Virus genome (UHGV): UHGV-0210252
Reading direction: 5' to 3' (one strand)
DNA: 36,405 nucleotides
From: a virus
Positions 284 to 34,279 of the stretch are shown here, piece by piece (position 1 is the stretch's first letter; each line of letters opens with the position of its first letter). Below the pieces are notes generated by a model. The model saw only the letters and a program-made list of their open reading frames with translations. It ran no database searches and was not told where the DNA came from. Made by a program: the position numbers and the translations under genes.

Positions 284-442
284 TTAATGACACTCAGACA
301 CCAGAGAACATACGAGAGTCTCGACCCACCCGACCCACTGACTTCCAGCAGTAACGCCAGCAGCAAGTAGAACAGCAGCAAGAAACCTGTATGTAGCTCG
401 ATTGGTCGCCAGAGCTTTAAGTACAGCTTTGGTCTTTGCCAT
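284..442 (-). CDS. gp19.5-like small protein (52 aa), hand-translated
   Basis: ATG at 442 with AGGAGG upstream, TAA at 284-286; product MAKTKAVLKALATNRATYRFLAAVLLAAGVTAGSQWVGWVETLVCSLVSECH; position after the phiOR-like promoter and TYRFL...VCS pattern resemble T7 gp19.5. Confidence 0.5.
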   Translation of the reverse strand: MAKTKAVLKALATNRATYRFLAAVLLAAGVTAGSQWVGWVETLVCSLVSECH

Positions 443-620
443 ATGCTACATACCTCCTGTATCTATGGTCGGTGACTATCTGTATTGGAGGTATTATGAT
501 TAATATCACCTCCTTCCATCGGTGCAAGCCTTAGGTAAGAACTCGGAGTCTGCCTCCTAAGGTCTTGCATAAAGTCTGCATATGTATATTCACTACAGTA
601 ATACTATAAGTAACCGGGGG

Positions 621-643
621 TCTTCCCTATAGTGATAGTTAAG
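621..643 (-). promoter_or_regulatory. Phage RNAP promoter (phiOR-like), TSS about 626
   Basis: Plus strand cctatagtgatagtt at 626-640 = minus strand AACTATCACTATAGG; downstream of gene 19 as in T7. Confidence 0.75.
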
Positions 644-738
644 TCCAAACTCCTTGTAAAACAGTAGGTTAGACTGGTAGTAACTATAGGTTACTGACCG
701 CGTATTCATGCAGCTTTCACCCATAGTTATTCATTCAG

Positions 739-2502
739 CTAGTGAAACGTAACGTAGGACCCTAGCCCCAGCTCGTCGTCCGTATCGTGAGTCACCCGGA
801 CCCCATTGTCCCAGAACTCAGTGTGGATGGACTCGAAGCCTTTCCGTGGGTTCTCCATCTGTTCCTCCAGCCACTCCTCAGTGACTTCACGTTCGCCTTT
901 GTTGGCATCCTTAGCCATAGACTCAACGAAGAACTGTACACCGATAGCCAGAGCATCAAGTCGGTCATCGTGTGACAAGGCCCCACGTTCACGAGAGATA
1001 CGCGTCATCTGGTAGAAGAGAGAGTAGATAGGGTTACGAACGCCATCCTTATCAGAGGCTGTCTGGTAGTCTTGGACGATAGCAGCAGCGTTAACGATAA
1101 GTCGGTGAGACCCCATGATAGGCTCCAGAACGTCACAGATGCGGAGTTCTTTCTGAACCTTACTCTTTACTTCAGTTACAGCAGCAGGGTGAATACGGGC
1201 CGCTACGGGCTTGAATAGCTCAAGGTACATACCATCGCCGAAGTTGCCCTCAATGACGTATTCGTTGACCTTCCACTTACGACCAATCTTAGCCAGTGCT
1301 TCCAGCGTAGAGTCTTCATAACCTCCACGCATACCACCAACTTCCATAGCGAAGATGTAGCCGTTGAGCTGATACAGTACCGCATAACCAGTTTCATCCT
1401 TACCTCGACCACTAGGGTCAATGACCAGAATCTTCTGGGTGTACGAGCTGAAGGCAGAACCTACAGTCTGATACGTGTGGTATGAGTCACCCATGAGTCC
1501 AACGTTAGGAACGTCCTCACGCTTGTTCTGAGGGTTTGGCAACCATTGGTAGACCATTGGGCTGGACTCTGGGTCCAAGTCCGCTACGATAAGGTCACGG
1601 AGCTTCAGAGGGTACTTCTCGGCATCACTAAGGTTCGGGTTAAGCATGAACTGCAGAGCGAAGCCAGCTTTACCATAGGACAGTTCACGTTCCTTCAGGT
1701 CCGTATCATCGAATCGTACTTCATCGGTAGGACGCCAGTAGAAGGACTCAGGGTCCTCTTCCAGTTCTGCCTGAAGCATAGGAGCCAGACGGTCTCCGTA
1801 AGACTGCCAGTCCTTCCTGTCGCGTGGATAACGAGCTGGCCAGATAGTAGTGGTGTACCCACGGCCTTCCAGCTCACGATACAGGGTCATCTCGTTCTGA
1901 GGAGTACCCAGATAGATGATTGTACCTCCCGGCTTCAGGATAGCGTCGAACTCTTTAACAAGCTCTGACAGACGGTCTCGTGCAGCCTGAGTCGCTGAGT
2001 TGTTCGGAACCTCCACGTCATCGGCAATCAGGATGTCAGCACGACTACCAGTCAACTGACCAGTGATACCAACGGACTTAACCGAAGGTGAGTGGTCTGG
2101 CTTGGCTGGTCCAACGTCGAAGCTGATAACCGCATCTCGCTGACCCTGCTTAGGTTTGAGTTCCTGAAGCTGAGGCATGAGGTCGATGATTCGCTTGATG
2201 AAGATGGAGTTAGCATCGGCTCGCTCCTTTGAGGCCGACACAATCATGAACTTCAAGTCTGGGTTGTTCCATAGCTTCCAGACAACGAAGGCACACGTAA
2301 TGAAGGACTTACCTATACCACGGAACGCCTGTAAGATGAAGCGCCTGTTGTCCCCAGCCGATAGTTTCTTCGCCATGTCAATCTGACAGCGAGTCGGGAC
2401 TGGGAGTGACAGAGCTTTCCATAGGACGAACAGGAAGAACACGAAGTCTTCCTTCATGCGTGTGGTCATTAGCGCCTGACGAGCCACTAAGTCTTTACTC
2501 AA
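739..2502 (-). CDS. Terminase large subunit (T7 gp19, DNA maturase B)
   Basis: 587 aa; strong recalled similarity to T7 gp19 over whole length ([41 protein letters not shown]). Confidence 0.95.
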
Positions 2503-2504
2503 TG

Positions 2505-2948
2505 TTACACCTCCTTATCTTGCTGCAAGGCTCTCACAGTGTCCTGAAGCGCCTTAATCCACTTGTCTCCTTTCAGTCCGATGGAGATAAGACGTTTAGC
2601 ATCTCGTTCGTCAAGTTCGGCGTAACCATCAATGACGCATCGACCGTCACTTTGCGTGGTTCCACTCGTTGGTTTGACTCGGATGCGCAACCGCTTATTG
2701 TCAGACTGAAGGTCAGCAATAATCCTATCAGTGCTACCTTCCAGCGAGGACATTTCGTCCTGAAACCGTTTGGACACTTTGTTGACTTCAGCTTGGACAG
2801 CAAGCCTTGTATCCTCTGATGCCTTAAGATTCGAGGTGTATTCTGCATTGACCTTAGCCTCCCACTTATTGTTAGCGGTGTGGTAGCCACCAGCAAACAT
2901 CACTGCTGCAAGTAACCACGGAGCCGCTCTCTTTAAAAATTCGAGCAT
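2505..2948 (-). CDS. i-spanin (T7 gp18.5, Rz-like)
   Basis: 147 aa, N-terminal TM segment then coiled coil; position between small and large terminase genes as in T7. Confidence 0.85.
2573..2848 (-). CDS. o-spanin (T7 gp18.7, Rz1-like) embedded in +1 frame of the i-spanin gene
   Basis: ORF 2573..2896 contains signal-like segment [18 protein letters not shown] (lipobox-type Cys) and C-terminus ...[19 protein letters not shown] resembling T7 gp18.7; start chosen at internal Met (2848), start uncertain. Confidence 0.65.
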   Translation of the reverse strand: MQNTPRILRHQRIQGLLSKLKSTKCPNGFRTKCPRWKVALIGLLLTFSLTISGCASESNQRVEPRKVTVDASLMVTPNLTNEMLNVLSPSD

Positions 2949-3003
2949 AGCTGCCCTCCCGGTTTATCAGATTTCACGTAGAGTCTCCTCCACTAGTTAG
3001 TGT

Positions 3004-3049
3004 TAACCATAAAGGCCACTACATATAGTAATGACCTTGAGTCTAACAC
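3004..3049 (-). promoter_or_regulatory. RNase III-type processing hairpin (R18.5-like)
   Basis: Conserved element ATAAAGGCCAC...ATGACCTTGAGTCTA, one of three copies (also 26980-27024, 34215-34260); minus-strand RNA folds AAGGUCAUUAC/GUAGUGGCCUU; sits between genes 18 and 18.5 where T7 has R18.5. Confidence 0.55.
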
Positions 3050-3058
3050 TTAATAAAT

Positions 3059-3322
3059 TTACTGCACTCCATATCCAGTGTCATTATCTTCTGTAGCGGA
3101 GAGCACCTTATCGTACTCTGCGTTCAGGGCCTCCATATCAGCCAGCGTCTTCTCGTCCACAGACACCTTGCTTAACACAAAGTTGTGACGAGCCAGCAGC
3201 TTCTCAATGGCGTTGTAGAGCTGAGGTGAACGTTTAGAGTCATCCCGCAAGTCTTGCAGCATGAGTCGAGCACGTTCAGTATCTAGCATTAAGAGGAACT
3301 TCTCTAAGTCCATCTGCGTCAT
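3059..3322 (-). CDS. Terminase small subunit (T7 gp18, DNA maturase A)
   Basis: 87 aa; size and position match T7 gp18. Confidence 0.8.
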   Translation of the reverse strand: MTQMDLEKFLLMLDTERARLMLQDLRDDSKRSPQLYNAIEKLLARHNFVLSKVSVDEKTLADMEALNAEYDKVLSATEDNDTGYGVQ

Positions 3323-3513
3323 GTTTTACCACCTCCTTTAATCGTTTTGTAGACTAGCACACCAATCTGGACAACGGTGTACGCGATAGCTGCAACGTAG
3401 AACCATTCGTTCAGTGTAAGTCCGAAGAAGAACCGACTGGCACCATCAGCCGCAGCGGTTCCGACGATAGGAGAGGCTTTAAGGACCTCATTCTTGAAGT
3501 CTAACTCAATCAT
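3319..3513 (-). CDS. Class II holin (T7 gp17.5)
   Basis: 64 aa; MIELDFKNEVLKASPIVGT...FFFGLTLNEWFYVAAIAYTVVQIG closely resembles T7 gp17.5. Confidence 0.85.
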   Translation of the reverse strand: MIELDFKNEVLKASPIVGTAAADGASRFFFGLTLNEWFYVAAIAYTVVQIGVLVYKTIKGGGKT

Positions 3514-3646
3514 AAAACCTCCAGTTTCTCACGGTCCTGCCTGTCCCTTGTCTGGTTCTAAAACAGAGTCTTAAATCGTTCCTCCAGTCTGACTAGAAGC
3601 AGTTCAACCGATTCATTCATTCATAATATTACTAATATGTAAACTA

Positions 3647-3662
3647 ACCCCGCCTAAGCGGG
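3647..3662 (-). terminator. GC-rich stem-loop (CCCCGC-UUAG-GCGGGG) just 3' of gene 17; possible terminator or RNA-stability element
   Basis: Perfect 6-bp GC stem seen in sequence, followed on minus strand by UUAGUUUACAU (only weakly U-rich). Confidence 0.3.
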
Positions 3663-3687
3663 GTGTGGTGGGGGGTTATTGTTACTT

Positions 3688-5931
3688 TTAAGGTATTACA
3701 TTGCCCATATAATCCTGCCACTGTCCATATGCGTAATAGAACACCTTCTTACTATTAGGGTCAGACCAGTGAGTACCTGTAACAGGATTCTCAGGTCTAC
3801 CGCGTCCGTACAGAATTGCAGGTACTACAGCGTACTGCGCAGAACCATTGTCTGTAGCATCTGTAAGGGAGACGTAAGCAGCGGTGCCGTGAACATCAGG
3901 TCTGCGCTCTATGCCCCACATACCTAGTCTCGGACCCTTAGCATAAGTCATATCCTTCTGACCAGTTGCGCCTGCACGGGTAAAGCCCCCGAAGCAGTCA
4001 AACAGGAATGCAGGTGGGGTATAGTCTTTGAAGTTCTGAGCGATCTGCTGGCCTGTATCTCCAAAGCTACCGATATACGGACGTACGCCACCGTGAGTCT
4101 GCTTAACGCCGTCGAACTCTACGAAGCTGTCGCTAAGGTCAGAGCTTATACTTGGTTCAGAGAAGCTGAAGGTGAAGTCACTCCTAATGTCCACGAACCG
4201 CACCTGACTTTGGAAGGAAGTGTAGAAACTGCTGTTAAGGTTAGCTGGAACACCGCCGAGGTTTTCTAGTAGCACCTTACTGATATTCACAGAACTAGCT
4301 CCAAACTGGAAGTAGTGGTTGAATCCCGGAGAGGATGCTAAGTCAAATCCGTACACTGTACCTATATCTGCACGAGTACGTGTAAAACGTACAATCGGCC
4401 CTACTGTATCAGCCTTGGCAGATTCCCAGCCAAGTGAGCCTGCACTGCCGCTAAAGTCTACAAAGTCGTATGGGACACCATAGCACCGGTCGCAAGCAAG
4501 GCTACCAATACTGCTATATACGCAAGTAAGTTTATACGCTACACCAGTGCTTCCGTACACGAAGATATTATCTATGAAGTTAGTCGTACCCATAGTGCCC
4601 ATGATGAACCCGTTCCCGCATAAGCTGGAATGTAGGGCTGTGAATCGGGACAAGAAGACGGCGTCGTCGAACTTAATCATCGTACCAAAGCCTTCAATCC
4701 GCAGGTTATGCCACAGCATCTGGGAGCAACCGTTAGTAGCATGAATACCATAACCTACTGTACCAATAATGCTGCTTAAGTGCCCATCCTGAACAATATC
4801 AAAGTCTCTAAGGGATACGTTATAGGTATACTCCCCTGTGGCAGCTGGGCGTATACGTAGGCCATCTGAGCCGTTAGGGAAGGTAAGTAATGACTGTGAT
4901 CGCCCCTCGCCGTACATGTTCAAACCGCTCTTACTATAATGATTCTCTACAGTAATCGTTATAGGGTCCGAACAAAAGTAATTGCCTTCAGGAACTCCCA
5001 GTCTGCGTTTAGATGCTATGGCAGTAATAACAGCCTGCTGCACGGCAGCATAATCAATAGATTGATCAAGAGAAGTTACGAATGGATAGACAGCTTTCGC
5101 CTCTGCAAGTGTGGTGAATCTCTCACTTAATTTATGAAGAACGCCATCACCAATTGCGCCAAAGTCTTTTACACTAAGTACTTCAATAAGTTTATTATTA
5201 ACTGTTCTTCCTACCGAGCCGACAACTGGCTGTTTTGTTGCCACCAGCATATCGCCATTGCCATCACCTGAACTTGCCAGGGCTGCTCTCAATGATGCAT
5301 CACCAACACTAACCCATGCACCAATACCAACACCACCAGATGCTTCAGGTGTTGAGCCGGCAGGAACGTTCTTTGGAAGCATACCATCCCAGCGGTAATA
5401 CTCACCATCCTCTTCCCATAGCAGGACCTCGTTCCATGTTGTAATGTTGAAGCCTTTCTCGAAGGAGCGACGGGTAATATAGCCGATTAGACCAGATGCC
5501 TTGATATTATCAGCGATTCGTCGTGCTTCGTCCTCGCTATCCTTAGCGTTGCCAGCAGAGCTACCAGCAGCATCGGCATATTCCTTCGCTAAGTCAACAG
5601 TTTGGTCTCGACCTTCTTCTGCAATATGGATAGCCTGAAGCTCTGCATTGGTCAGGTCACTAGCTGTCAACACTGAGCCATTCCTGAAGTCTACCACTAA
5701 GTCAGTTCCAGTCTGACGGTGAATACGAACGACGTCGAAACCTGATTGGTCAACCAACATCTCAATCATCGTTGGATTAAGGAATCGGTAATCTCGACCG
5801 ACTTCCAGTACACGGTTCATGGTAGGGTTAGAGCTATTCACCAGCGTAACAACAACAAACGTTCTGGCTAGGTAGTCGAACTCAATCCTGTACTGAGTGT
5901 TTCCTGAAGGGAATTGTGTAATCGTGGACAT
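3688..5931 (-). CDS. Tail fibre / tailspike (T7 gp17 family) with divergent C-terminal beta-helix depolymerase-like domain
   Basis: 747 aa; first ~150 aa resemble T7 gp17 N-terminal attachment domain (FDYLARTFVVVTL...DYRF); remainder unlike T7 and contains VKDFGAIGDG motif typical of pectate-lyase-fold tailspikes. Confidence 0.9.
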   Translation of the reverse strand: MSTITQFPSGNTQYRIEFDYLARTFVVVTLVNSSNPTMNRVLEVGRDYRFLNPTMIEMLVDQSGFDVVRIHRQTGTDLVVDFRNGSVLTASDLTNAELQAIHIAEEGRDQTVDLAKEYADAAGSSAGNAKDSEDEARRIADNIKASGLIGYITRRSFEKGFNITTWNEVLLWEEDGEYYRWDGMLPKNVPAGSTPEASGGVGIGAWVSVGDASLRAALASSGDGNGDMLVATKQPVVGSVGRTVNNKLIEVLSVKDFGAIGDGVLHKLSERFTTLAEAKAVYPFVTSLDQSIDYAAVQQAVITAIASKRRLGVPEGNYFCSDPITITVENHYSKSGLNMYGEGRSQSLLTFPNGSDGLRIRPAATGEYTYNVSLRDFDIVQDGHLSSIIGTVGYGIHATNGCSQMLWHNLRIEGFGTMIKFDDAVFLSRFTALHSSLCGNGFIMGTMGTTNFIDNIFVYGSTGVAYKLTCVYSSIGSLACDRCYGVPYDFVDFSGSAGSLGWESAKADTVGPIVRFTRTRADIGTVYGFDLASSPGFNHYFQFGASSVNISKVLLENLGGVPANLNSSFYTSFQSQVRFVDIRSDFTFSFSEPSISSDLSDSFVEFDGVKQTHGGVRPYIGSFGDTGQQIAQNFKDYTPPAFLFDCFGGFTRAGATGQKDMTYAKGPRLGMWGIERRPDVHGTAAYVSLTDATDNGSAQYAVVPAILYGRGRPENPVTGTHWSDPNSKKVFYYAYGQWQDYMGNVIP

Positions 5932-5976: not shown

Positions 5977-5999
5977 AGTTTCCTATAGTGATAGTTTAG
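5977..5999 (-). promoter_or_regulatory. Phage RNAP promoter (phi17-like), TSS about 5982
   Basis: cctatagtgatagtt at 5982-5996; followed on minus strand by leader with AAGGAGG and the gene 17 ATG. Confidence 0.8.
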
Positions 6000-8900
6000 T
6001 CCTTGATGTGGATGCCTTGCTCCTCAAACGTTCCAAGCAACAGCTTCTGGGTAATGGGGTCGTTCGGAACCAGTTCACGGAACGTATTATACATCCCGGT
6101 CATGTAGTCACGCTCGTTGACACGAGTATCAGCCTTGAGGTAGCCAGCCAAGTTGTAAGCCGAAGCGCCAACGTTAGCAGCATATCCGAAAGCTGGAACC
6201 TGCTCCAAGAAGTTACCAACAACATTCATCACAGGGTCACTTGTAGCTGCACCATACGCGATGGCACGTTCAGGCTTCTCTGTAGGCGAACGAGGTAGGA
6301 TAGACGAACGGAGCATCTTAGTGTCCTCGTACCCAGCGATACCCCCAAGAATGTTAGCTACCCCAAGTGGTCCACCAAGATGTGAACTACGCGATAGAGC
6401 CGCATATCCAATCATCGTCGGGTCCAGAGCTTGCTTGAGGTAATCACGGTCTCGGCCATCCTGCATAGCGTAAGCCTTGACGTGCGCCTGAGCCATGTAG
6501 TAGATACCGGCAAGTCCCATAGACATCACAGTTGACAGAGCAGCGTCCATCGCTCGGTTGTTCTTCGTGGCATTATAGAAGGTTCGCATGGTTCGCCCAT
6601 TGATGGACTTGATGACGAAGTTCTTAAACTGAAGGACAGTCTTAGCGAGAGGGCCATAAGCCTTGGCGTCCATGTTTGATAGCTTATGAGGTCGGAGTAA
6701 CGTTTCGTCAGCGATGGTGTCACCCATACGCCACAGGTCCATAGCCCTTGGGTCCTGACTGAACGCCTTCTTGTCCTTGATGGTATACTTCCCGTCTGGA
6801 CCACGAGTCACTGACTCACGGATTAGGGACTTAATACCCTTCCACTGCTCGTCAGAGATACCAGCGGTCTTCAGCCAGCGGTCATCGAACTTACGCTTAC
6901 TACCAGTCAGGCTATGCTCCACGATGTCAGACAGGAAGCCTTGACGTCCAGCATCTAACAGGTAGTTGGTCGTACCGTTGAGGACTTTAGTGAACGGAGA
7001 GCGTACTGCAAGTTCACCAGTGTAATACTTTGCAGATCCTAAAGCAGTAGCCGTAGGTTTACTCAAGGCGCTGTAAGCTCGTAGGCGGTCTATGACATCC
7101 TGTTTAGACGGACGGATTGAGTCATCCAGTTCCTTACCGAAGATAACATTGTGCAGGTCCTTAATCTCTGAGGCCCCTACCTTCTTGTTACGGAAGGCTA
7201 GGTCACGGAACATCGGGACTCCATGCAGCAGCGCACGAACGTTGCCACGAGCAAGCATACCACCAATCTCCGTTAAGTTCTGAACACCCATGTAGGCATT
7301 CTTAGCGAAGAACGATAGGTCTGTCATTGTGCGCATCACGGTAGCGAAGGCCGCATCATCAGCACCATCACGTCTAGCACGACCAGTTAGAATCTTCAAA
7401 GTGTCACGTAAGGTCGAGACCTCACCTTTCAACTTGCCGTCATCGCCAGCCTTGTTCATCATGGTCTCAACCAAGTCCTTCATGTCCTTCGTGGTCTTTC
7501 CTGTACCAGCCATGATAGCAATGTCACCATTAACTCGACGGTTGTATGCCGGGACAATCTTATCCATATCCCACTCACGTAGACTATTTACGCTGAACGG
7601 CTTACCATTTGGCAAGGTTATTTCCATGTCGTTATCGAACAGGTTGCGAGCCTCAAGGAAGTTATTGTTCTCCAGACCAACCAGACCGTTGATGTTTTCT
7701 TCCATTACGGATGAACGCTCAAACTGCTCTGTATGGGAGATACCATAAGCCTTATCATTAGCATACTTCTCTACCATATCCATAGTCACCTCTGGTGCTG
7801 CTTGAGATGCGTTACCAGATGTAGGTTCACCAGCAGTAGTGGTCTGACCATCTACAGCAGTCTTCTGCCCTTTGGCAGCTGCCACAGCCGATTCAGCTTC
7901 AGTTGTTGCTTTGGTGATTCTGTCTCGGACCTTAGCAGCCTGTCCTTTCATGTAGTCAAGACGCTCAGTGTTAATACGGACGTGAGACTTCTGAGTCTCA
8001 ATCATCTGCTTCCGGCTCTCAATCTTAACAGGAATGGTCTTGCTCTTAGGTTTAGCGGCTAGCTTTTCTTCCAACTCCTTCAGCTTAGCTTCATGGGAAG
8101 CCAGTCGGTCCTTTGAGTTCTGGAGTCTCTTTTCACGGTCTGCAACTCGCTTCTCAGCGTTGGTAAGGACATCTTTGAGTTCCGCTACCTTATCAATTGC
8201 CTGTGTAGCCGCATCGTCCAGTTTCATCTGGTCACGGGCTGCTTCTACAGAAGAACGATGATTTGATGCAGTACCTACAGTCTTACCTGCTGCTGGTTGA
8301 GATGCCCGTAACTGCTCTGCTAACATCTCGTCCACTCGCGCCTTGACTTCAGGTCTTGACGCATAGCTTGTCAACCATGACTTCTTGATTGCCTCCTGTA
8401 ACGCCTCTGGGCTTCCAAGCTCATTGATATAAATCTGCTTCATCTGAGAACTATAGACCACAGGAACGTAGGTTCCCTTGAATCTACTACCCGGGAAGAT
8501 AGACTGAGCATCTGTACGACCAAACATCGCTGGGTTCTCCATCATCTCGCGCTTTGCATCAAACTGGTTCTTCAGCAGGTCATAGACTTTCAGTTCCCCC
8601 GGAGTAAGTTCAGCCTTCAGGTTCCCGCTACCATCCTCAATAGCCAAAGCCTCGCGCTTATAAACATCCTCACGCAGAGCTGAGTTATCTCGCCAGAATG
8701 CTGTCTGGAAGTACGGGTCCTTGAGCGCCTCAGTAACAGCATCGTCGATGTCGTTGTAGAACCGATGGTCCACAGCACGAAGTCTCTCGAATACGTCTGA
8801 CGCAGTGGTCCCGATTTTACCTGAAGCCCCTGACTGCATACCAGTTGGTGAACGCACTAAGTCAGCAGCGACTCCACGAATCTCAGGGTTCTCAGACCGA

Positions 8901-10384
8901 AGCAGCTTCAGGCCAATCTCGGTAAGTCCACCAAGGTTCACACCAGCAGCGGCACGTTCAGGCTCAATCACTTCGTCAAAGACTTGACGTGTCTTAGGGT
9001 TCAGAGGGTTCTCACCAATAAGGATTGAACCATCTTCCAGTCGTACACTACCCGGCTCGTTCGGAACGTCTGCGAACTTAACACCTTGATGACTGAAGGT
9101 CTGCTCACCTTCCTGAATAGGTAGACGAGACAGGTCCTGACCATCAACATTACGTGCAGTCTCACGGGCTTCCAGACGTGTAGCCGGACCAGAGAACTCG
9201 TTAGTGGTACGACCTAAGGCTCTGCTTAACCCATCAGCGATAGCAGTCATACCGCCGCCGAAGAGAGCACCGCCAAGGATAGCTTCAGCCACATGAGCAT
9301 CACCACCAGCCACTGAGGTACGGGCCATCTCGGACACACCAGCCAGTGCCCCAGATTGAGCAGCCACGGTGAACATCTTGTTGACTAGCTTACCACCTTT
9401 ACCAACCTGTCCAGCTATAGGAACGTAGGTCAGCGGGTCTACACCAGCACCAATCACACCAGCAGCTAACTGAGCACCAATCCCTGCCTTGGCCTTCTCT
9501 TGGTCCAACTTCTGGTTCTCAAGCGCCAAGTTAATAAGCTCAGTCAGGTTCTGAGGGGAGCCACCAGTAATTACTCCGTAATACTGAGGAAGAACCCCAG
9601 CGTTACGAATCTGGTCAAGCTCCTCACGAGACCACTTATGGTTGTTCCATCGCGTCGGGTTGAACACATCGCCAATGACATCCAGTGAGTCCTCAGTCTG
9701 ACCAGCGCGGATAGCCACGCCGACCATAGAGTTCTTCACTTCAGCTTCTGTAGCCGCACCAAAACCGAACCACGTAGAGCGGCCCTCTCGTTCCTGCATG
9801 GTCTCGCCAGTAGACTTATAGAACATCTCACCGAACGATTCGTTGGGAGCTTCAGGTGCTTGACCCTCAATGTTTAGACCAGCAGCGGTCGGAAGGTTCT
9901 CGCCCAGAGCTACTTTAGGTTTAGCCTTGAGTCCTTCCGTGAGTGCGTCAAATACGTTAGCGCTTACTGGTGGAGTCTTTGGGCTAATGCCATTGAGTGC
10001 TCGTGCGACTCCCTTCTGATAGACTTCAGGGTCGTACCGGGAGCCTGTCTCATGGAAGCTGATAGCTTGAGCCAGAGAAGACAGGGTGTCAGGGTCAGAT
10101 AGGTCGAGACTCTGGGTAGCTGGAATACCAGTTGTGGCCACCACTGAGTCAATATAAGCCTTAGTGTCGTTCTCGTTAGGAGGCGCCCATCGGTTGATAA
10201 TCTTCTCGATGGAGTCATAACCTTGGCGACCGTAGGACAGCAGGTTTTTACCTAAAGCTCGGACGCCAGACTCTGGACTATCGAAGGTGACGAATGCGCC
10301 ATCATCTCCAGTCATTCCTTCCCATTGGTCCTTACTTACCCGGATGTTACCCGGATTGTTATTGCGAATACCACGAGTCGCCAT
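5996..10384 (-). CDS. Internal virion protein D (T7 gp16 family), 1462 aa, with non-T7 N-terminal domain and central coiled-coil insertion
   Basis: Extensive recalled similarity to T7 gp16 from about residue 200 onward (STWFGFGAATEAEV..., GVDPLTYVP, RLEARETARN, MVEKYANDKAYGISH, C-terminal LVPNDPITQKLL). Confidence 0.9.
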   Translation of the reverse strand: MATRGIRNNNPGNIRVSKDQWEGMTGDDGAFVTFDSPESGVRALGKNLLSYGRQGYDSIEKIINRWAPPNENDTKAYIDSVVATTGIPATQSLDLSDPDTLSSLAQAISFHETGSRYDPEVYQKGVARALNGISPKTPPVSANVFDALTEGLKAKPKVALGENLPTAAGLNIEGQAPEAPNESFGEMFYKSTGETMQEREGRSTWFGFGAATEAEVKNSMVGVAIRAGQTEDSLDVIGDVFNPTRWNNHKWSREELDQIRNAGVLPQYYGVITGGSPQNLTELINLALENQKLDQEKAKAGIGAQLAAGVIGAGVDPLTYVPIAGQVGKGGKLVNKMFTVAAQSGALAGVSEMARTSVAGGDAHVAEAILGGALFGGGMTAIADGLSRALGRTTNEFSGPATRLEARETARNVDGQDLSRLPIQEGEQTFSHQGVKFADVPNEPGSVRLEDGSILIGENPLNPKTRQVFDEVIEPERAAAGVNLGGLTEIGLKLLRSENPEIRGVAADLVRSPTGMQSGASGKIGTTASDVFERLRAVDHRFYNDIDDAVTEALKDPYFQTAFWRDNSALREDVYKREALAIEDGSGNLKAELTPGELKVYDLLKNQFDAKREMMENPAMFGRTDAQSIFPGSRFKGTYVPVVYSSQMKQIYINELGSPEALQEAIKKSWLTSYASRPEVKARVDEMLAEQLRASQPAAGKTVGTASNHRSSVEAARDQMKLDDAATQAIDKVAELKDVLTNAEKRVADREKRLQNSKDRLASHEAKLKELEEKLAAKPKSKTIPVKIESRKQMIETQKSHVRINTERLDYMKGQAAKVRDRITKATTEAESAVAAAKGQKTAVDGQTTTAGEPTSGNASQAAPEVTMDMVEKYANDKAYGISHTEQFERSSVMEENINGLVGLENNNFLEARNLFDNDMEITLPNGKPFSVNSLREWDMDKIVPAYNRRVNGDIAIMAGTGKTTKDMKDLVETMMNKAGDDGKLKGEVSTLRDTLKILTGRARRDGADDAAFATVMRTMTDLSFFAKNAYMGVQNLTEIGGMLARGNVRALLHGVPMFRDLAFRNKKVGASEIKDLHNVIFGKELDDSIRPSKQDVIDRLRAYSALSKPTATALGSAKYYTGELAVRSPFTKVLNGTTNYLLDAGRQGFLSDIVEHSLTGSKRKFDDRWLKTAGISDEQWKGIKSLIRESVTRGPDGKYTIKDKKAFSQDPRAMDLWRMGDTIADETLLRPHKLSNMDAKAYGPLAKTVLQFKNFVIKSINGRTMRTFYNATKNNRAMDAALSTVMSMGLAGIYYMAQAHVKAYAMQDGRDRDYLKQALDPTMIGYAALSRSSHLGGPLGVANILGGIAGYEDTKMLRSSILPRSPTEKPERAIAYGAATSDPVMNVVGNFLEQVPAFGYAANVGASAYNLAGYLKADTRVNERDYMTGMYNTFRELVPNDPITQKLLLGTFEEQGIHIKD

Positions 10385-10388
10385 TATG

Positions 10389-12671
10389 TTACTCCTTACC
10401 GATTAGTACGTTTGCGATACCCTCCAATGAGACGTCATTGTACATCCCTCCGCGCTTCTCGATGTTGGCCTCTCGGTCAGCTCGACGTTTATCACCAGCA
10501 GCTTTAGTCCCGACGATACGCGCTCGCTTGTTAGCGTCACGTTCTGCCTGAGCATATGCGGCATCTTGTGCCTTCTGCTGTTGTTCGCGGTAGAGTTTAC
10601 CTACAAGTTCTTTATCGTATCTAATACGAATAGTCCCTGTAGCGTCTTGGAGGAAGATAGAGCCGTTCTGTTCAACAACGGACAACTGAGAGTTCACTAC
10701 CCAAGGGTTGGCCTTAATGAGCTGCTTACGAGCGGTGTCGATAATGTCTCGACCAACCTGCCACGACTCTGGGTTATCCCCTACCATAAGCTGGTGCTTT
10801 GACACCATGCCGATGGACTTACCGTCAGAACCTTCAGACTGGAACGTTACGGTGTTCTCATTCAGCCAGCGTTGAGTCTGCTGAGTTGCAGCGTCAGCGT
10901 TACCTGTACGATAGTACCATGAGTCCCAGACCTTGCGAGCACTTGCGTCCAGAGACGTAGGAAGACGCGAAAGGTCCTTATTCCGAGAGTCGTTCTTCAA
11001 CTCCTGCCACGCCTTGTCTGACTCCATGCGCATCTCACGGCTTTGACTTGCAGCTTGCTTATCAGCTTCAATCATCGTCTGAGGGTCCAGACCCATCTTG
11101 TCCATCTGGTCGAACGTAGAGAACAACTGAGCTTGGTCAGGATACAGAGCAGCAAAACTTGAAGGGTCCTGAGTGTAGGCACGGCGAAGAGATTCGAAGC
11201 GTTGCATCTTGTCTGGGTCGTACTGCCCACGGATGACCGCGGCTTGCCACTCACCAGCAGCGTCCTGAGTCAGCGTCTGGAAGGCATTACGGAAAGGACC
11301 GTTGTTAGTGTCGGCCCTCAACAATGCCACCTTCTGAGCGTCCTTAGCAGCCTCGGGGATGTCCATCTGGTCAATCTGCTGTAGCTTGGCAGACGCATAG
11401 TTGTTCATGTCTGAACGCTTGAACTCTCCTGTAGCTTCAGAGACCGGAAGGTCCTCATAGTTGGTGGACACGTTGTCCCCAGCCAGACGTCGCTGATACA
11501 CTTGGTCAATGACCAGTTGCTTATTCTGGGTCTGGATTAACTTAGTGTTCTCCTTAGCCTGTTCAGCGGACTTACGCTTGACCGCTTCCAATAAGCTGGC
11601 TTCGGCATTAATAAGCATCTGACGCTGAGGCGTTAGCTCTTCACCCGGCTGAAGCAGGTTGTTCTGCTCCTTGAGTTTCTGAATCTGGGCAAGACCAATG
11701 GTTGGGTCATCTTGAAGAATCGCAGACTGAACGCCTAACGCCAAGTCTTCCTGATACTTAGCCACCAGTTTATACTCAGTACCTTGGGCCTCAACCATAG
11801 CAGCGTTGAAGACGTCAGGTCCTACAATCTCTTCGATGGTAGCGTCAACACCATTAAGTGTGATACGCTCGCCACGGACTTGCTGTAGGAAGTTTGAGCC
11901 TCCTGACTTCTGGATTGCGTCACGGACCGTCTGGGTGATGACCTCCCGTGCTCGCTGGTCCGAAGGGATAGCAGCAGTAGTCAGTCCATCACGAAGCTAG
12001 CCCATGAAGGTCTTACCTGACTCAGGTGAACGCATCAGGTCGCCATCGTTCAGGAATGAGTTCATCTCAATACGAGTATTCAACATTGCTGTCTCTTCAG
12101 ACTGCTTACTGAAATACTTATTGAAGGACCCATAGATAGCGATGTTGCGGTCTGTGATGTTATCGTTGAACCCTCGCTGGAAGAACTCATCGGTAGGGTT
12201 AATACCAGCCTCTTCCGCATAGGACTTAGCTGCATCCTGAAGTCTCTGGTGGCGATATTCTTCCATTTCCTGACGTGTGCGGAACTCACCGTTCTGAATC
12301 TTAACGTTAATCTCGTCGTCTACAGCAAAGGCAGCATTACGACCAGTCTTGACTCGAAGTGCTTCCATAGCGTAAGGGTCATCCTGATACAGCAATGTGC
12401 CGTTCTGGATAGCCTCACGTCTTTGCTGAGGTGTCAGCTTACGGATAATCTCGTTAGACCGCTCGTCTGCCCGTGTCTTCTCATCGTCCTTGAACTGCTT
12501 GTACAATCCTGTCCCAGACTCAACGAAGTTAGTCAATGCACGAGCCAGCCCGGAGTCCCCAGTAGGAGCCTGAACGTTGGCTGCTTGGTAGTTGACGGCG
12601 ATAGTTTTACCCGGTGCTCTGCCACGACCCATAGTCCGATTAGCCAGAGCTGATTCAATATTACTAGCCAT
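10389..12671 (-). CDS. Internal virion protein C (T7 gp15), one reading frame of 761 codons interrupted by an in-frame TAG at 11997-11999
   Basis: Track ORFs 11997..12671 and 10389..11798 are in the same frame; hand translation of 11996..11799 is open and T7-like (LRDGLTTAAIPSD...); similarity to T7 gp15 on both sides of the stop. Confidence 0.85.
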
Positions 12672-13750: not shown

Positions 13751-13800
13751 AAGGGCCTATAGTCCCTATAGTGATAGTTAAGGTAAATCTATAGGCCCTT
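13751..13800. repeat. Perfect 12-bp inverted repeat (aagggcctatag / ctataggccctt) enclosing the phi13-like promoter core
   Basis: Seen directly; arms at 13751-13762 and 13789-13800, promoter 15-mer at 13765-13779. Confidence 0.6.
13760..13782 (-). promoter_or_regulatory. Phage RNAP promoter (phi13-like), TSS about 13765
   Basis: cctatagtgatagtt at 13765-13779 between gene 12 stop and gene 13 start. Confidence 0.8.
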
Positions 13801-18206: not shown

Positions 18207-18309
18207 ATGATAATTCTCCTATTCAATTGAAAGATAAAGTTTATTACTTACTGTACGCCCAACCCGTATGGACTGAAGTAATAGGGAAACCTTGAGTCTA
18301 TCTCTATTT

Positions 18310-18332
18310 GTCTCCCTATAGTGATAGTTTAG
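18310..18332 (-). promoter_or_regulatory. Phage RNAP promoter (phi10-like), TSS about 18315
   Basis: cctatagtgatagtt at 18315-18329; minus-strand leader GGGAGAC...GGTTTCCC...AGGAGA...CATATG resembles the T7 gene 10 leader. Confidence 0.85.
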
Positions 18333-18336
18333 TCAA

Positions 18337-19221
18337 CTACAGGCTTGATGCAGCTACCTTAGCGCGAACTTCCATCGTGTACTTAGCGTCACGCAGGTAT
18401 CGCGGGTCACTCATAGCCTTAATCATGTCAGCCTTGGAGCTGAATGCTTCTGTCTTAGGAGCCTTAGGTGATACCACAGGTTTAGCCTGAGTGGTGATGG
18501 TACGCTGAGGTTTAACGCCTACAGCTTTACCCAGAGTCTTGCCAGCCAGATTCAGCAGAGCTTTGGTAGTCGCAATGTCCTTACGAACTATGGCAGCTTC
18601 CAGCGCTTCACGAGTTGACGGGTCGTTGGACTCAAGGTGTGACAGGATGCGATTAAACTGTTCAGCACCACCAGCGTAGCGAACCACACCAGCAGCATAC
18701 TGTTCAGCCAGAGCTTCCTGACCACGTACAAACGAATCTACGAAACGTTTGGTGTAACCTGCTTCCTGCAACTTAGCGTAGGATGCGTCAGACAGCTTAC
18801 CGTCCTTGGCGTATTCAGCCTTGATAGCGGTAATTTCATCAGCAGTGACCTTGCCAGCTTCTACAGCAGAAGACACCATGTCGTCGAATGCAGCTTCGTT
18901 TTCATCCAGAGCGGTGACACTTTCAGTCAGCTCTTTCGGTGCATCACCTAGTTCGATGAACTCAGGTTGCTCACCATCTGTCTCAGACTCTTCGCCATCG
19001 GACTCGTGGTCTTCTTCACCTTCAGTCTCTTCGACGTTCTCGTCTTCTTCGGTCGCCTCTTCGTTTTCGGCTTCCAGTTGCTTGAAGGTAATAGCGTCAT
19101 CGCCATCACGAACAGCTACGTCCTGTTCAAGCATAGACTTCTGGTGTTCGTTCAGGTCCTCAACGGAACCAGTGATTGCATTAGAGCTAACGCCAAACTC
19201 GGCATAAACTGATTGAGACAT
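18337..19221 (-). CDS. Capsid assembly (scaffolding) protein (T7 gp9)
   Basis: Start set at MSQSVYAEFGV (AAGGAG upstream), matching T7 gp9 N-terminus MAESNADVYASFGV; acidic central region; track's upstream Met at 19296 rejected. Confidence 0.85.
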   Translation of the reverse strand: MSQSVYAEFGVSSNAITGSVEDLNEHQKSMLEQDVAVRDGDDAITFKQLEAENEEATEEDENVEETEGEEDHESDGEESETDGEQPEFIELGDAPKELTESVTALDENEAAFDDMVSSAVEAGKVTADEITAIKAEYAKDGKLSDASYAKLQEAGYTKRFVDSFVRGQEALAEQYAAGVVRYAGGAEQFNRILSHLESNDPSTREALEAAIVRKDIATTKALLNLAGKTLGKAVGVKPQRTITTQAKPVVSPKAPKTEAFSSKADMIKAMSDPRYLRDAKYTMEVRAKVAASSL

Positions 19222-19310
19222 TGAGTCATTCTCCTTTAAGTCGTTAATAGGAAACACAACAACCTGCCATCCCGTTACGGCTGGCCATGCGTTCACTCAC
19301 TCAAGTTGTG

Positions 19311-19333
19311 TTGTTCCTATAGTGATAGTTTAG
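19311..19333 (-). promoter_or_regulatory. Phage RNAP promoter (phi9-like), TSS about 19316
   Basis: cctatagtgatagtt at 19316-19330. Confidence 0.8.
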
Positions 19334-20898
19334 GCTTGAGCCATGTCCTCACCAGCTCCCTGACCTACAGCAGCACCCATGTTAGCACCAGCAGCACTAG
19401 CACCTTGGACAACTGCCTGTTGAGACGACTGCTCAGCCATGCGCTGAATCTTCTCGTCTTGCGTCAGGAGTAGACCAGCGGTGTCGATACCCAGAGCGTT
19501 CAGGAGTCGCAGCTTAAGGGTCGGCAAGTTGATGTCCGGGTCCTGAGATAGCGGCTGAAGACCAGTCATCATGTTAACAGCCTGAGTTAGCTTCTCCAAG
19601 TCCTGACCACGACCTAACGCTTCTAGACCAGTGGATACCGTAGGCTCTACCGCTTCTTTCGGAAGGTCTGGAATCATGCCAGCAGACTGAAGCTGGTTCA
19701 TCAGCACACGGACTATAGGTAACTGAAGCTCTTGTGACTGTACCGAGTACACTCCACCTAAGGTCGCCTCCAGTTCTCCAGCAACATAACGAATCTCTTC
19801 AGCAGTGACTCGCTCGGCATTACGCTGAACAGCACTATTGAGAAGGAAGGCCCAGCCTAAACGTTGCTCGATAGCGTCAGCCACCGACTTGGCAATCGTA
19901 AAGTCCTGACCTTTCGTCAGTTGCAGGAAGTTGATGTCCTCGACGCGACCAGCCACGAACTCACCTGTAGCCGCCGTGTTCAGACGACGAGGTTGCGTGA
20001 TACCATTCGGGTTAACGAGGCCCACCACCTTGGAGGCTACCTTAGCCATTTTGGTGATAGCTTCTGTAATCGTCTCCAGCGAGTTCAGGTCCCCAAGATA
20101 CTCCTCGCAATAAGAACGACCATAGTCTTCACCGTCCAGTCGAACCATTCGTACCGGGATGTATGGACATGCAGTCAGTGGGTAGGAACCCTCGGTCCCT
20201 GCTACCTCAATGCCTTCCACTTCTTCATAGCGCAAATACTCGTCGTCCTGACGGTAGATGTGCGTATATACTTCCAGCTCTGTGTCAGGATCATAGTCGT
20301 CTGCGTTGAGTTGTGACTTCACGTCTTCCGGTAGAGCACTAAACGCTACCTTGTCGAGAGTCACAATCTGCAAGATGTTACCGAACGCATCACGTTGAAC
20401 AACGTAAGACACTAAGCGGTACATTCTCATGGGACTGTAGGTCCCCTGTTCAGGCTCTGGAATGTAGAGCAGACAGTTACCGGAGACGATAAGCTGCTTA
20501 AGAGCCTCAAACAATGGGACACGGAAACTGTTAGTCTCCATGTAGGCCATCAACACACGCTCGACCATAGCCAGCCCTTCGTCAACACGAGCAGCCGCCT
20601 CTGAGTCCTGACTCAAGGTCTTAGCCTCATATTCGGAGACTGTTAGTCGCATCCACGGTGATTGAGGGAATAGCGCCAACATCAGCTTTGCAGCCAAGTT
20701 GTTCAAGCAGCGAGCACCTACAGCTTGCCACGGAGTGGTGTACTCAGTAGATGAGTTGTCGGACTCCTTAGGAAACAGTGACGGGATAGTGACAGCAGCA
20801 CAGTTCTGAGCGCGTGTCTCATATGGCTGTCTACCGTTCTTCAGTCTATCATAAACTGCCTTCGCGCCTTCAGCAGCAAATCCTTCACGTTCAGCCAT
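19330..20898 (-). CDS. Head-to-tail connector / portal protein (T7 gp8)
   Basis: 522 aa; strong similarity to T7 gp8 (YETRAQNCA, TPWQAVGAR, YRLVSYVVQRDAFGN, RVTAEEIRYVA). Confidence 0.95.
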   Translation of the reverse strand: MAEREGFAAEGAKAVYDRLKNGRQPYETRAQNCAAVTIPSLFPKESDNSSTEYTTPWQAVGARCLNNLAAKLMLALFPQSPWMRLTVSEYEAKTLSQDSEAAARVDEGLAMVERVLMAYMETNSFRVPLFEALKQLIVSGNCLLYIPEPEQGTYSPMRMYRLVSYVVQRDAFGNILQIVTLDKVAFSALPEDVKSQLNADDYDPDTELEVYTHIYRQDDEYLRYEEVEGIEVAGTEGSYPLTACPYIPVRMVRLDGEDYGRSYCEEYLGDLNSLETITEAITKMAKVASKVVGLVNPNGITQPRRLNTAATGEFVAGRVEDINFLQLTKGQDFTIAKSVADAIEQRLGWAFLLNSAVQRNAERVTAEEIRYVAGELEATLGGVYSVQSQELQLPIVRVLMNQLQSAGMIPDLPKEAVEPTVSTGLEALGRGQDLEKLTQAVNMMTGLQPLSQDPDINLPTLKLRLLNALGIDTAGLLLTQDEKIQRMAEQSSQQAVVQGASAAGANMGAAVGQGAGEDMAQA

Positions 20899-22459: not shown

Positions 22460-22519
22460 CTTGAATCTCCTCTTTAAGTTAAGACTAAAGTCTATCTTAT
22501 AGTCATATCTTAGGTCCTA

Positions 22520-22542
22520 AAGTCCCTATAGTGATAGTTTAG
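22520..22542 (-). promoter_or_regulatory. Phage RNAP promoter (phi6.5-like), TSS about 22525
   Basis: cctatagtgatagtt at 22525-22539. Confidence 0.8.
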
Positions 22543-22595
22543 TGTTTCACCTATGGATGACTGTTGGATTGATAGGATATGACTATCGGTTAGAC

Positions 22596-29006: not shown

Positions 29007-29055
29007 AGGTCACTCCTTAATCACAAATGCGAACAAAGGGACAGGACTCACGGTC

Positions 29056-29078
29056 CCATCCCTAAGGTGATAGTTTAG
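29056..29078 (-). promoter_or_regulatory. Variant phage RNAP promoter (phi3.8 position), TSS about 29061
   Basis: cctaaggtgatagtt at 29061-29075: two changes in the -3/-2 region (CACCTTAGG versus CACTATAGG); may be weak or non-functional. Confidence 0.5.
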
Positions 29079-29290
29079 GCTTTGAAGAACTGAGCCAGCT
29101 GGTCAGCTTTGGTATCAGCCTGACGAGCCTTCATGCCAGCTTCCAGTGACGCGATGGTAAGCTTGTCAGCCAGAGCAGCAGCATCAGCCGCACCGTCAGC
29201 AGTCTTCTTTTCTACCTTTCGTTCCAGTACCGCAGCACGACGATAACCACGCACAACCAGACGACCAAGAAATTCGATAAGTTTAATCAT
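29075..29290 (-). CDS. Small coiled-coil hypothetical protein (71 aa)
   Basis: MIKLIEFLGRLVVRGYRR...QLAQFFKA; resembles by pattern a small T7-group protein family, ortholog unresolved. Confidence 0.5.
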   Translation of the reverse strand: MIKLIEFLGRLVVRGYRRAAVLERKVEKKTADGAADAAALADKLTIASLEAGMKARQADTKADQLAQFFKA

Positions 29291-31404: not shown

Positions 31405-31442
31405 CGGTGTAAATCTCCTAATTTAAAGTTACGAACTGGACG

Positions 31443-31465
31443 TCTGTCCTACAGTGATAGTTTAG
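31443..31465 (-). promoter_or_regulatory. Variant phage RNAP promoter (phi2.5 position), TSS about 31448
   Basis: cctacagtgatagtt at 31448-31462 (one change at -2). Confidence 0.6.
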
Positions 31466-31623
31466 GTCTCAGGACGAATCCGTCCTACCACAAACCCAGC
31501 GTCCTCATACTCTTGGGACTTAAGGGTAGCCTCTTCAAGAGACTTTGCGTACACCGGAACCTCGAAGGACTGAACGCGACCCTCAAGCTCCACGATGTAC
31601 TTCTTCTTCTCAACCTCAGTCAT
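31462..31623 (-). CDS. Host RNA polymerase inhibitor (T7 gp2), 53 aa, hand-translated
   Basis: [53 protein letters not shown]; SFEVP.YA..L.EA and AGF.V.R.RP match T7 Gp2. Confidence 0.75.
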
Positions 31624-32514: not shown

Positions 32515-32536
32515 AGAGTCTCCTTGGTTGTTTGTT

Positions 32537-32559
32537 GTAGTCCTATAGTGATAGCTTAG
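32537..32559 (-). promoter_or_regulatory. Phage RNAP promoter (phi1.5/1.6 position), TSS about 32542
   Basis: cctatagtgatagct at 32542-32556 (one change at about -13). Confidence 0.7.
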
Positions 32560-32595
32560 GGTCCAGCTGGTGTCCCAGACGATAGCTTGCTAGCA

Positions 32596-34178: not shown

Positions 34179-34214
34179 ACTGTTAAATCTCCAGTAGTTT
34201 ACGTTAGTAGTAAG

Positions 34215-34260
34215 GGTTAATCATGAAGGCCACGACTTTGAGTCATGACCTTGAGTCTAA
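34215..34260 (-). promoter_or_regulatory. RNase III-type processing hairpin (R1.1-like)
   Basis: Third copy of ATGAAGGCCAC...ATGACCTTGAGTCTA, immediately downstream of the phi1.1-like TSS. Confidence 0.55.
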
Positions 34261-34279
34261 TCCTATAGTGATAGTTTAG
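34257..34279 (-). promoter_or_regulatory. Phage RNAP promoter (phi1.1-like), TSS about 34262
   Basis: cctatagtgatagtt at 34262-34276. Confidence 0.8.

Follow-up and report, generated by a model that had tools for sequence, protein, structure and literature searches.

T7-like phages eject three proteins to form a DNA conduit, and gp16 is the largest of them. Here we describe gene 16 in the UHGV virus genome UHGV-0210252 (36,405 nucleotides, referred to below in its full length as the window), which encodes a gp16 with an ordinary T7-type body, a muralytic head unrelated to that of T7 and a 169-residue insert with no T7 counterpart. In sequence comparisons, this insert behaves as a cassette that has been moved between Kayfunavirus, Teseptimavirus, Berlinvirus and Klebsiella phages and has been held under purifying selection. 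The explanation that best joins these results, and in which we place moderate confidence, is a T7-type gp16 with an Enc34/M4Lys-type head that also carries an exchangeable hairpin cassette, which would serve as an accessory module acting in the cell.

Gene 16 occupies positions 5996-10384 on the minus strand, the strand of all gene 16 features given below. Its product of 1462 amino acids (aa) was identified as internal virion (ejectosome) protein D from the open reading frame (ORF) list, BLASTP, the family phrog_342 and matches in the Protein Data Bank (PDB). In PHROGs, phrog_342 ("internal virion protein with endolysin domain") matched residues 6-1460 with E=0, and in a phmmer search against the PDB the protein matched 7EYB_I (E=0) and also 9VVP_L, the latter from an entry for which we found no describing paper in the literature. 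The source genome is a Kayfunavirus (K1F-like phage). Gene 16 of Escherichia phage ST31 shares 95 % DNA identity with the window ORF, and about 180 other Kayfunavirus genomes match it at 93 % DNA identity in two pieces that cover 87 % of the gene. The gene is flanked by gp15 and the tail-spike gene in the T7-like order gp14-gp15-gp16-tail fibre/spike, both in the ORF list and in the annotation of relatives, and the gp15 product of a close relative belongs to PF26212 Phage_T7_Gp15. On sequence grounds, we infer that the gene 16 product would sit in the core of the capsid and pass from there into the host envelope on ejection.

BLASTP against T7 gp16 returned two blocks, residues 125-690 aligned with T7 152-715 (51 % identity) and residues 865-1462 aligned with T7 721-1315 (56 % identity), and it found no T7 counterpart for residues 1-124 and 696-864. 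The body of the protein is of the ordinary T7 type: it contains the tape to which gp15 binds, the two putative membrane regions and, at the C-terminal end, the large hub. The counterpart of the T7 loop or "molecular tape" that binds gp15 (T7 ~152-228) lies at residues 125-201 (9782-10012), where the BLASTP and HMMER alignments begin at 125-126, corresponding to T7 152-153. A first-pass annotation, made by a model from the sequence alone, had described an N-terminus unlike the T7 lytic transglycosylase with T7 alignment only from about residue 200; the former point stood, and the start was moved to about residue 125, with the alignment weak until about residue 185. Compared with T7 gp16 (PDB 7EYB, 7K5C, 6YT5), the window protein agrees in gene position, in 51-56 % identity over the tape, membrane regions and hub, and in the motif EKYAxDKAYG with the position of T7 G737. 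It differs in having an unrelated muralytic head in place of the SLT (GH23) domain and a predicted helical-hairpin module between T7 positions 715 and 721.

The insert lies between two anchor peptides (residues 684-695 and 865-884) and comprises 169 residues, at window 7793-8299; the same anchors are 5 residues apart in T7 gp16. BLASTP and anchor mapping therefore bore out the first-pass annotation, which had reported about 170 residues between peptides adjacent in T7. The length varies with the definition, being 165 aa between two flanking repeats, 167 aa against the insert-less phage PE3-1 and 169 aa between the anchors. The insertion site is bounded by the conserved motifs RPEVKARVDE and EKYAxDKAYG, and on its C-terminal side the conserved motif EKYANDKAYGISH occupies residues 872-884 (7733-7771; BLASTP register, window 865 = T7 721). 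Ala, Lys, Thr, Glu and Arg abound in the 169 residues, whose net charge is +8. Heptad registers run unbroken through two stretches, residues 712-776 and residues 782-845, where L/I/V/M/A fill 74 % and 78 % of the a/d positions, respectively.

For structure prediction with AlphaFold2, residues 561-1000 were used together with an 18-sequence alignment. The model contains a first helix of 69 residues (residues 709-777, 8054-8260; model residues 149-217), in which the predicted local distance difference test score (pLDDT) reaches 95, a turn with the sequence KPKSK that breaks the predicted helices (residues 778-782, 8039-8053), and a second helix of 57 residues (residues 783-839, 7868-8038; model residues 223-279) with an a/d occupancy of 78 % and a net charge of +5. 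The pLDDT was 86-95 across residues 741-830 and below 50 in the coils at 697-708 and 840-863, which are rich in Gly, Ser, Thr, Pro and Ala. The second coil belongs to a Gly/Thr/Ser/Ala/Pro-rich flexible linker at residues 840-864 (7793-7867; pLDDT <50) with no predicted secondary structure, and this linker includes the right copy of the flanking repeat. In the simplest reading of the model, the insert would form an antiparallel helical hairpin about 9-10 nm long between two flexible linkers.

Several other identities were considered for the insert and rejected. Scans of the insert with Pfam, NCBIfam and PHROG gave no Hint, endonuclease or transposase family; a self-mobile element such as an intein, homing endonuclease or transposon was dismissed, because no such domain appears among these matches, the 507-bp insert is translated in-frame as a coiled coil and just a 9-bp repeat flanks it. 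Matches to SMC, Rad50 and GAS-type proteins were sub-threshold and compositional (NCBIfam 10-22 bits against cutoffs of 300-1000) and showed no ATPase motifs. When the remainder of the window was searched by tblastn with the insert, no match that would indicate internal duplication was returned, and none of the phage promoter copies in the window lies inside the insert, which speaks against a role at the DNA level.

The insert is rare and is found in several genera. Among 50,697 phage records, tblastn found it in 20, corresponding to 16 phages and always within gene 16, and 23 metagenomic protein clusters also carry it, so it is not an assembly artefact. The carriers in Kayfunavirus are ST31, ZH4, PH1061, CY1, Bas105 and Kc166A; those in other genera are NC-A (Teseptimavirus) and P483 and A7 (Berlinvirus). 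Several more Klebsiella, Enterobacter, Yersinia and E. coli phages, such as JacobBurckhardt, also carry it. A query made of the two flanks located the insertion site in 1282 records, and when 60 rows were sampled evenly down this ranking, 59 had a linker of just 2-12 residues at the site. Only about 6 of roughly 190 Kayfunavirus records have the insert, and the possibility that it is common among close relatives, which the first-pass annotation had left open, is set aside by this count. Since the insert occurs with both SLT-type and Enc34-type N-termini, the insert and the type of head are independent features. The closest comparison is with Kayfunavirus gp16 that has no insert, for example in PE3-1 or in PDB 9VVP chain L ("Gp29", 1295 aa), which is ~95-99 % identical outside the insert and has the same Enc34-type N-terminus, and which differs in having a 17-residue linker, LLESDPTLTPEGLAAAV, in place of the 169-residue module of the window.

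The history of the insert was found to be separate from that of the surrounding gene. In these comparisons, residues 716-840 were taken as the insert core. NC-A, P483 and Klebsiella phage phi1_146017 share 86-89 % protein identity with the window over the core versus 52-57 % over the rest of gp16; the corresponding values are 85-89 % versus 57-61 % for nucleotides and 73-79 % versus ~40 % for third codon positions. Synonymous divergence (dS) of NC-A and P483 from the window was 0.38-0.40 in the insert and 1.7-2.7 in the flanks, and between NC-A and P483 themselves it was 0.14 and 1.7-1.8. For Bas105 against the window the pattern was reversed, with a dS of 1.47 in the insert and 0.29-0.50 in the flanks. 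This discordance indicates that the insert has its own history, with recent transfer between genera and allele replacement within a genus. Relative to the insert-less PE3-1, DNA identity is 82-85 % in about 100 codons on either side of the insert (7700-8000 and 8300-8600) and 92-93 % elsewhere in the gene, which fits import by recombination, with the insert arriving together with some flanking sequence.

In addition to being exchanged, the insert is constrained. The ratio of nonsynonymous to synonymous divergence (dN/dS) was 0.07-0.15 (0.27 in the near-identical pair NC-A and P483), as low as in the essential rest of gp16, so the protein sequence of the insert is being kept by selection. Across 28 distinct copies, positions facing solvent were invariant in 59 % of cases versus 53 % for the heptad core, and the distal half around the turn was best conserved. 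This conservation of the heptad surface is modest evidence and hints at a specific binding surface rather than a spacer.

The module can also be lost. A 9-bp direct repeat, GCATCTCAA, encoding Ala-Ser-Gln was read directly from the sequence, with the left copy (Ala694-Ser695-Gln696) at 8297-8305 and the right copy at 7802-7810. Together with the right copy, the sequence between them forms a deletable cassette of 495 bp (165 codons; residues 697-861, 7802-8296), which is exactly deleted in L010 and L011, two metagenome contigs of ~39 kb from the European Nucleotide Archive (ENA) that belong to Kayfunavirus and carry gene 16 at 301-4194. They represent the variant P0026 (1297 aa), in which the 495 bp are removed precisely from repeat to repeat and the gene is otherwise 95-96 % identical; a single GCATCTCAA copy is left at the L010 junction. 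Five P0026 contigs were read, and the two places given here come from two different samples. Another variant, P0025 (1334 aa), is a separate partial-deletion mosaic of the same region. Because such exact-deletion genomes exist in metagenomes, the module can be lost without obvious loss of the phage.

According to one alternative, the insert would be a functionless passenger in a permissive loop, spread by recombination between the conserved flanking motifs and slowly being lost, a scenario that accommodates the rare and patchy distribution, the repeat-mediated deletion together with partial-deletion variants such as P0025, and the lack of a homologue of known function. However, a passenger would not be expected to show a dN/dS of 0.07-0.15 even for allele pairs with a dS of about 1.5, as low as in the essential remainder of gp16, nor to keep its heptad pattern, length and surface residues through 28 distinct sequences, and its repeated acquisition across genera suggests a benefit. 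We consider this alternative distinctly improbable.

The same site in gp16 also accepts a different module. In Klebsiella phage P7124 and the cluster P0027 (24 member sequences), it is occupied by a non-helical module of ~190 residues, and the module was found in 15 records, corresponding to 11 phages of several genera that include Pectobacterium PP74, Enterobacter EcpYZU01 and Shigella ESh9. The module lies at L007:2536-2880 in P7124, L013:3579-3923 in A7 and L014:3579-3923 in PP74. When trimmed to a 115-residue core, all four copies tested matched Pfam Acetyltransf_1 (PF00583; best E 6e-6); the A7 copy scored 24.9 bits against a cutoff of 20.7, and the match covered the acetyl-CoA-binding motif region. 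A profile of the module gave weak acetyltransferase matches in the PDB (E ~0.03-1), and a word-indexed protein search with the module, whose index is too coarse for this purpose, returned nothing. We regard the second module as probably a GNAT-like acetyltransferase-type domain, an assignment short of certain because the scan of the untrimmed module was sub-threshold and single-sequence AlphaFold2 of the P7124-type module reached a pLDDT of 47, too low to use. Derivation from gp13 was also considered, as T7 gp13 is reported to match acetyltransferases, and was rejected at an hhalign probability of 0.1 %.

In the gp16 of Shigella phage A7 (1644 aa), the coil and the GNAT-like module stand in tandem, and on both sides of the A7 coil lies a copy of an imperfect 19-bp repeat that encodes ENFLR. 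Since the interval between RPEVKARVDE and EKYAxDKAYG is seen empty, with the coil, with the GNAT-like module or with both, and with at least two linker sets, it can be described as a small modular variable region.

The position of this region within gp16 bears on what the hairpin might do. In the published map of T7 gp16, residues 1-156 form the lysin, 157-228 the tape, 243-410 and 1119-1290 putative membrane regions, and 411-1118 a DNA-binding hub modelled in the host cytoplasm (PMC8954989). The T7 substitutions G737D, I754T and E761K allow the whole genome to enter without transcription (PMC8954989), and for this reason a gp16 "clamp" on incoming DNA has been proposed. In the BLASTP register, the Gly of the DKAYG motif, G881 in the window, corresponds to T7 G737 and lies 16 residues past the end of the insert. 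Homologues of internal virion protein D are already known to carry cytoplasm-destined domains, for example the virion RNA polymerase of N4 and, in phage H66, a domain resembling a methylase (Hardies et al. 2016, PMC4819975). In the explanation we favour, the hairpin would enter the cytoplasm on the gp16 hub as an optional accessory module, would project beside the motif that controls DNA entry and bind incoming DNA or a host factor there, and would give a host-dependent advantage at the start of infection without altering the conduit.

A long coiled coil might instead be a structural element of the virion core or ejectosome that contacts packaged DNA, bundles neighbouring gp16 chains or extends the conduit. 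Long coiled coils are typically structural, internal virion proteins C and D consist mostly of helix and have many coiled coils (PMC4819975), the net charge of +8 (+5 in helix 2) would permit DNA binding, and the purifying selection is strong. However, in about 98 % of the Studiervirinae that share this gp16 architecture the site holds just a linker of 2-12 aa, including near-identical Kayfunaviruses and 9VVP (1295 aa), and natural genomes with the exact deletion exist. The module also stands between two low-confidence flexible linkers and so is not rigidly part of the fold; its alternation or pairing with a non-helical GNAT-like module at the site is unlike a spacer; and a hairpin returns the chain to its starting point and thus cannot lengthen the path through the protein. 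Taking both sides together, we judge the structural role to be unlikely, though less so than the passenger. The first-pass annotation had proposed that the insert would lengthen the ejected core protein. This holds for chain length and fails for the conduit, given a hairpin with flexible linkers, a site modelled in the cytoplasm and natural deletion; the same three features make the insert look like an appended accessory module rather than a conduit extension.

Some points weigh against the accessory-module explanation. Purifying selection would fit a role inside the capsid equally well. The antiparallel packing of the helices is a reading of the model; gp16 around the insert was poorly modelled by AlphaFold2 (mean pLDDT 55), and because the surrounding segment is so poorly predicted, the hairpin cannot be placed on that fold. 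The cytoplasmic site of the hub is a model from the T7 literature rather than a solved structure, and because the deletion variants come from metagenomic assembly, it is from assembled genomes that their viability is judged. A Foldseek search against the PDB returned only generic helical hairpins, the best being 4WHE and 4MH6 with an rmsd of 5.5 Å over ~120 columns, none of them significant (E at least 0.1); the likeness of the hairpin to PspA/Vipp1 (4WHE), YscO (4MH6) and SMC/Rad50 is one of shape and composition only. The searches gave no homologue that would assign a function to the hairpin and no detectable relative outside gp16. An exhaustive HMMER search of the insert against 1.84 billion representative proteins found no relative outside gp16, its sole other match, P0122, being rejected as a repetitive coiled-coil protein, and a scan of IMG/VR with the insert gave just four isolate genomes that were already known. 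A word-indexed search of 5.8 billion proteins with the insert alone, for which the index is too coarse, returned a single gp16 fragment; the same search with full-length gp16 recovered insert-bearing proteins. Finally, muralytic activity is attributed to the head by homology, and its bond specificity is extrapolated from proteins just 34-39 % identical (tblastn).

More tentatively, and with less confidence than we give to the accessory-module explanation itself, the stretch from RPEVKARVDE to EKYAxDKAYG may be a natural cargo slot for swappable modules, two of them seen to date, that would be carried to the host cytoplasm on the first protein to get there, with the hairpin as an early-acting effector. 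Such an effector may counter a host defence at DNA entry, or may adjust the gp16 clamp by which the genome is held back until it is drawn in by transcription. The large ejected proteins N4 gp50 and Pseudomonas phage H66 gp60 (Hardies et al. 2016) likewise serve as vehicles for intracellular domains. Theirs are large enzymatic domains fixed in distant phage groups, whereas the gp16 modules are small, optional and swapped among close T7 relatives at one site, and the module of the window has no enzymatic signature. In the papers we found, insertions at this gp16 site are not described. What is new relative to this literature is the insert together with its horizontal exchange and its loss through repeats, and also the variable site with its two modules; that large ejected proteins can carry extra domains was already known.

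The second departure from T7 is the N-terminal head. Where T7 has its SLT domain, residues 1-124 (10013-10384) form a muralytic domain of the Enc34/M4Lys type (PHA02564), as identified by a phmmer match of residues 3-122 to PDB 7Q47_A, the Enc34 endolysin's catalytic domain (E=5.1e-15). W66, Y77 and E112 align to the conserved Enc34 residues Trp79, Tyr95 and Glu131 (7Q47 chain positions 80, 96 and 132, which are the native Enc34 numbering plus 1). Among 18 relatives, H111-E112-T113-G114 is nearly invariant, and a GIRNNNPGNI motif at the N-terminus is common to the gp16 domain and the Enc34/M4Lys domain. Residues 1-200 matched no Pfam or NCBIfam family, and neither the whole protein nor residues 1-200 matched PF01464 SLT. 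As a positive control, the first 160 residues of T7, NC-A and P483 gp16 matched Pfam SLT (PF01464) with E-values of 1e-27 to 1e-31. The window gp16 is thus not a member of the SLT (GH23) lytic transglycosylases with a catalytic Glu (T7 E37). The first-pass annotation had named a divergent SLT/lysozyme-like domain, a different cell-wall-active module and a non-enzymatic substitute as possibilities. The profile search disfavours the first, homology to 7Q47 with three important residues kept supports the second, and that same muralytic homology makes the third unlikely.

The domain is widespread. It was found by tblastn in 686 phage records, in both endolysins and virion proteins, and its carriers include chivirus endolysins (BSPM4 among them), the PM2 gene V product, structural proteins of Mu-like Pseudomonas phages and Microviridae. 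About 195 records have at least 80 % identity to the domain of the window, mostly Kayfunavirus-like, and the chivirus endolysins share 34-39 %. Because it is present throughout Kayfunavirus, the domain is ordinary for the genus and no peculiarity of the window genome. Since T7 homology resumes at the very point where the globular lysin domain of T7 stops (Y4-V145; PMC8954989; bioRxiv 10.1101/2021.01.04.424714), we conclude from the alignments that the muralytic heads were cleanly swapped across the genus.

The head could alternatively be a strongly diverged T7 SLT with no swap at all, and the authors of the Enc34 study do argue from structure for a very distant common ancestry with GH23/GH73, with the catalytic Glu equivalently placed (PMC8943055). 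However, residues 1-124 cannot be aligned to T7 1-151 and match no SLT profile in a protein whose remainder is 51-56 % identical to T7, other genera retain SLT at E ~1e-30, and the domain has its nearest relatives among the endolysins and virion proteins of phages from unrelated groups. In Enc34 the order of the helix that bears the catalytic Glu is permuted when compared with GH23 (PMC8943055), and a homology boundary exactly at the end of the globular lysin is what a domain exchange would leave. We therefore find divergence without a swap hardly credible.

The chemistry of the swapped head can be judged from its characterised relatives. The Enc34 endolysin comes from a Hafnia phage, its domain belongs to the CDD family PHA02564, and it lyses outer-membrane-permeabilised E. 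coli, Pseudomonas aeruginosa and Hafnia alvei; the catalytic role of Glu131 and the importance of Trp79/Tyr95 were assigned by superposition on GH73 and GH23 enzymes, not by mutagenesis (PMC8943055). A fold built of helices throughout and similar to the alpha-lobe of lysozyme is a mark of this family. The homologous domain of M4Lys, from Salmonella phage BSPM4, strips GlcNAc from muropeptides and is a glucosaminidase (PMC7143992). By analogy, the head of the window protein is probably a glucosaminidase rather than a transglycosylase, and it would open the periplasmic peptidoglycan in place of the SLT domain. Enc34 ORF39 and M4Lys resemble the window domain in homology (E=5e-15) and in the retained Trp/Tyr/Glu, and both degrade Gram-negative peptidoglycan; there the domain is the N-terminal part of an endolysin of 26 kDa that has a membrane anchor at its C-terminus, and it works during lysis, whereas in the window it stands at the front of an ejected virion protein of 160 kDa and would work during entry. 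In many GenBank records, Kayfunavirus gp16 is labelled "peptidoglycan lytic exotransglycosylase" or "transglycosylase", apparently by inheritance from T7. Because the domain is of the Enc34/M4Lys type with no SLT, and M4Lys is a glucosaminidase, this label probably gives the wrong chemistry, and the result for the N-terminus is chiefly a correction of annotation.

Some further features of the window were observed outside gp16 or at its edge. The gp15 gene, which encodes an essential ejection protein (10389-12671, 760 codons), contains an in-frame TAG at codon 225 (window 11997-11999, minus strand). PH1061 reads ATG GCC TAC CTT in this region and the window ATG GGC TAG CTT; the two C-to-G changes are separated by 4 nt and jointly give rise to a GCTAGC (NheI) site. 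An amber mutation, an engineered marker and a sequencing error are all conceivable origins of the TAG. A conserved motif of ~20 nt recurs ten times, as the reverse complement of CCTATAGTGATAGTTTAG (coding-strand sequence CTAAACTATCACTATAGG), at 616-651, 5979-6002, 13762-13785, 18305-18340, 19306-19341, 22515-22550, 29051-29086, 31438-31473, 32532-32567 and 34252-34287. The motif looks like a phage RNA polymerase promoter, and one of the ten copies, just upstream of the tail-spike gene, overlaps the gene 16 stop codon. A direct repeat of 53 nt, whose two copies match at 83 %, lies at 2994-3046 and 34208-34260, 31 kb apart near the window ends, and its second copy adjoins a promoter-like motif.

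For the study of ejected accessory modules, wild-type, natural-deletion, coil-only, GNAT-only and coil-plus-GNAT versions of gp16 exist and offer a ready comparison. If the GNAT-like module does need acetyl-CoA, it would provide an indirect test of whether the hub reaches the cytoplasm, and the site might suit engineered cargo in T7-like phages for delivery into the infected cell. For the biology of these phages, the insert marks a naturally permissive site in an ejected protein, beside residues that genetically control DNA entry, at which entire modules of 115-170 residues have been gained, exchanged and lost in the course of evolution.

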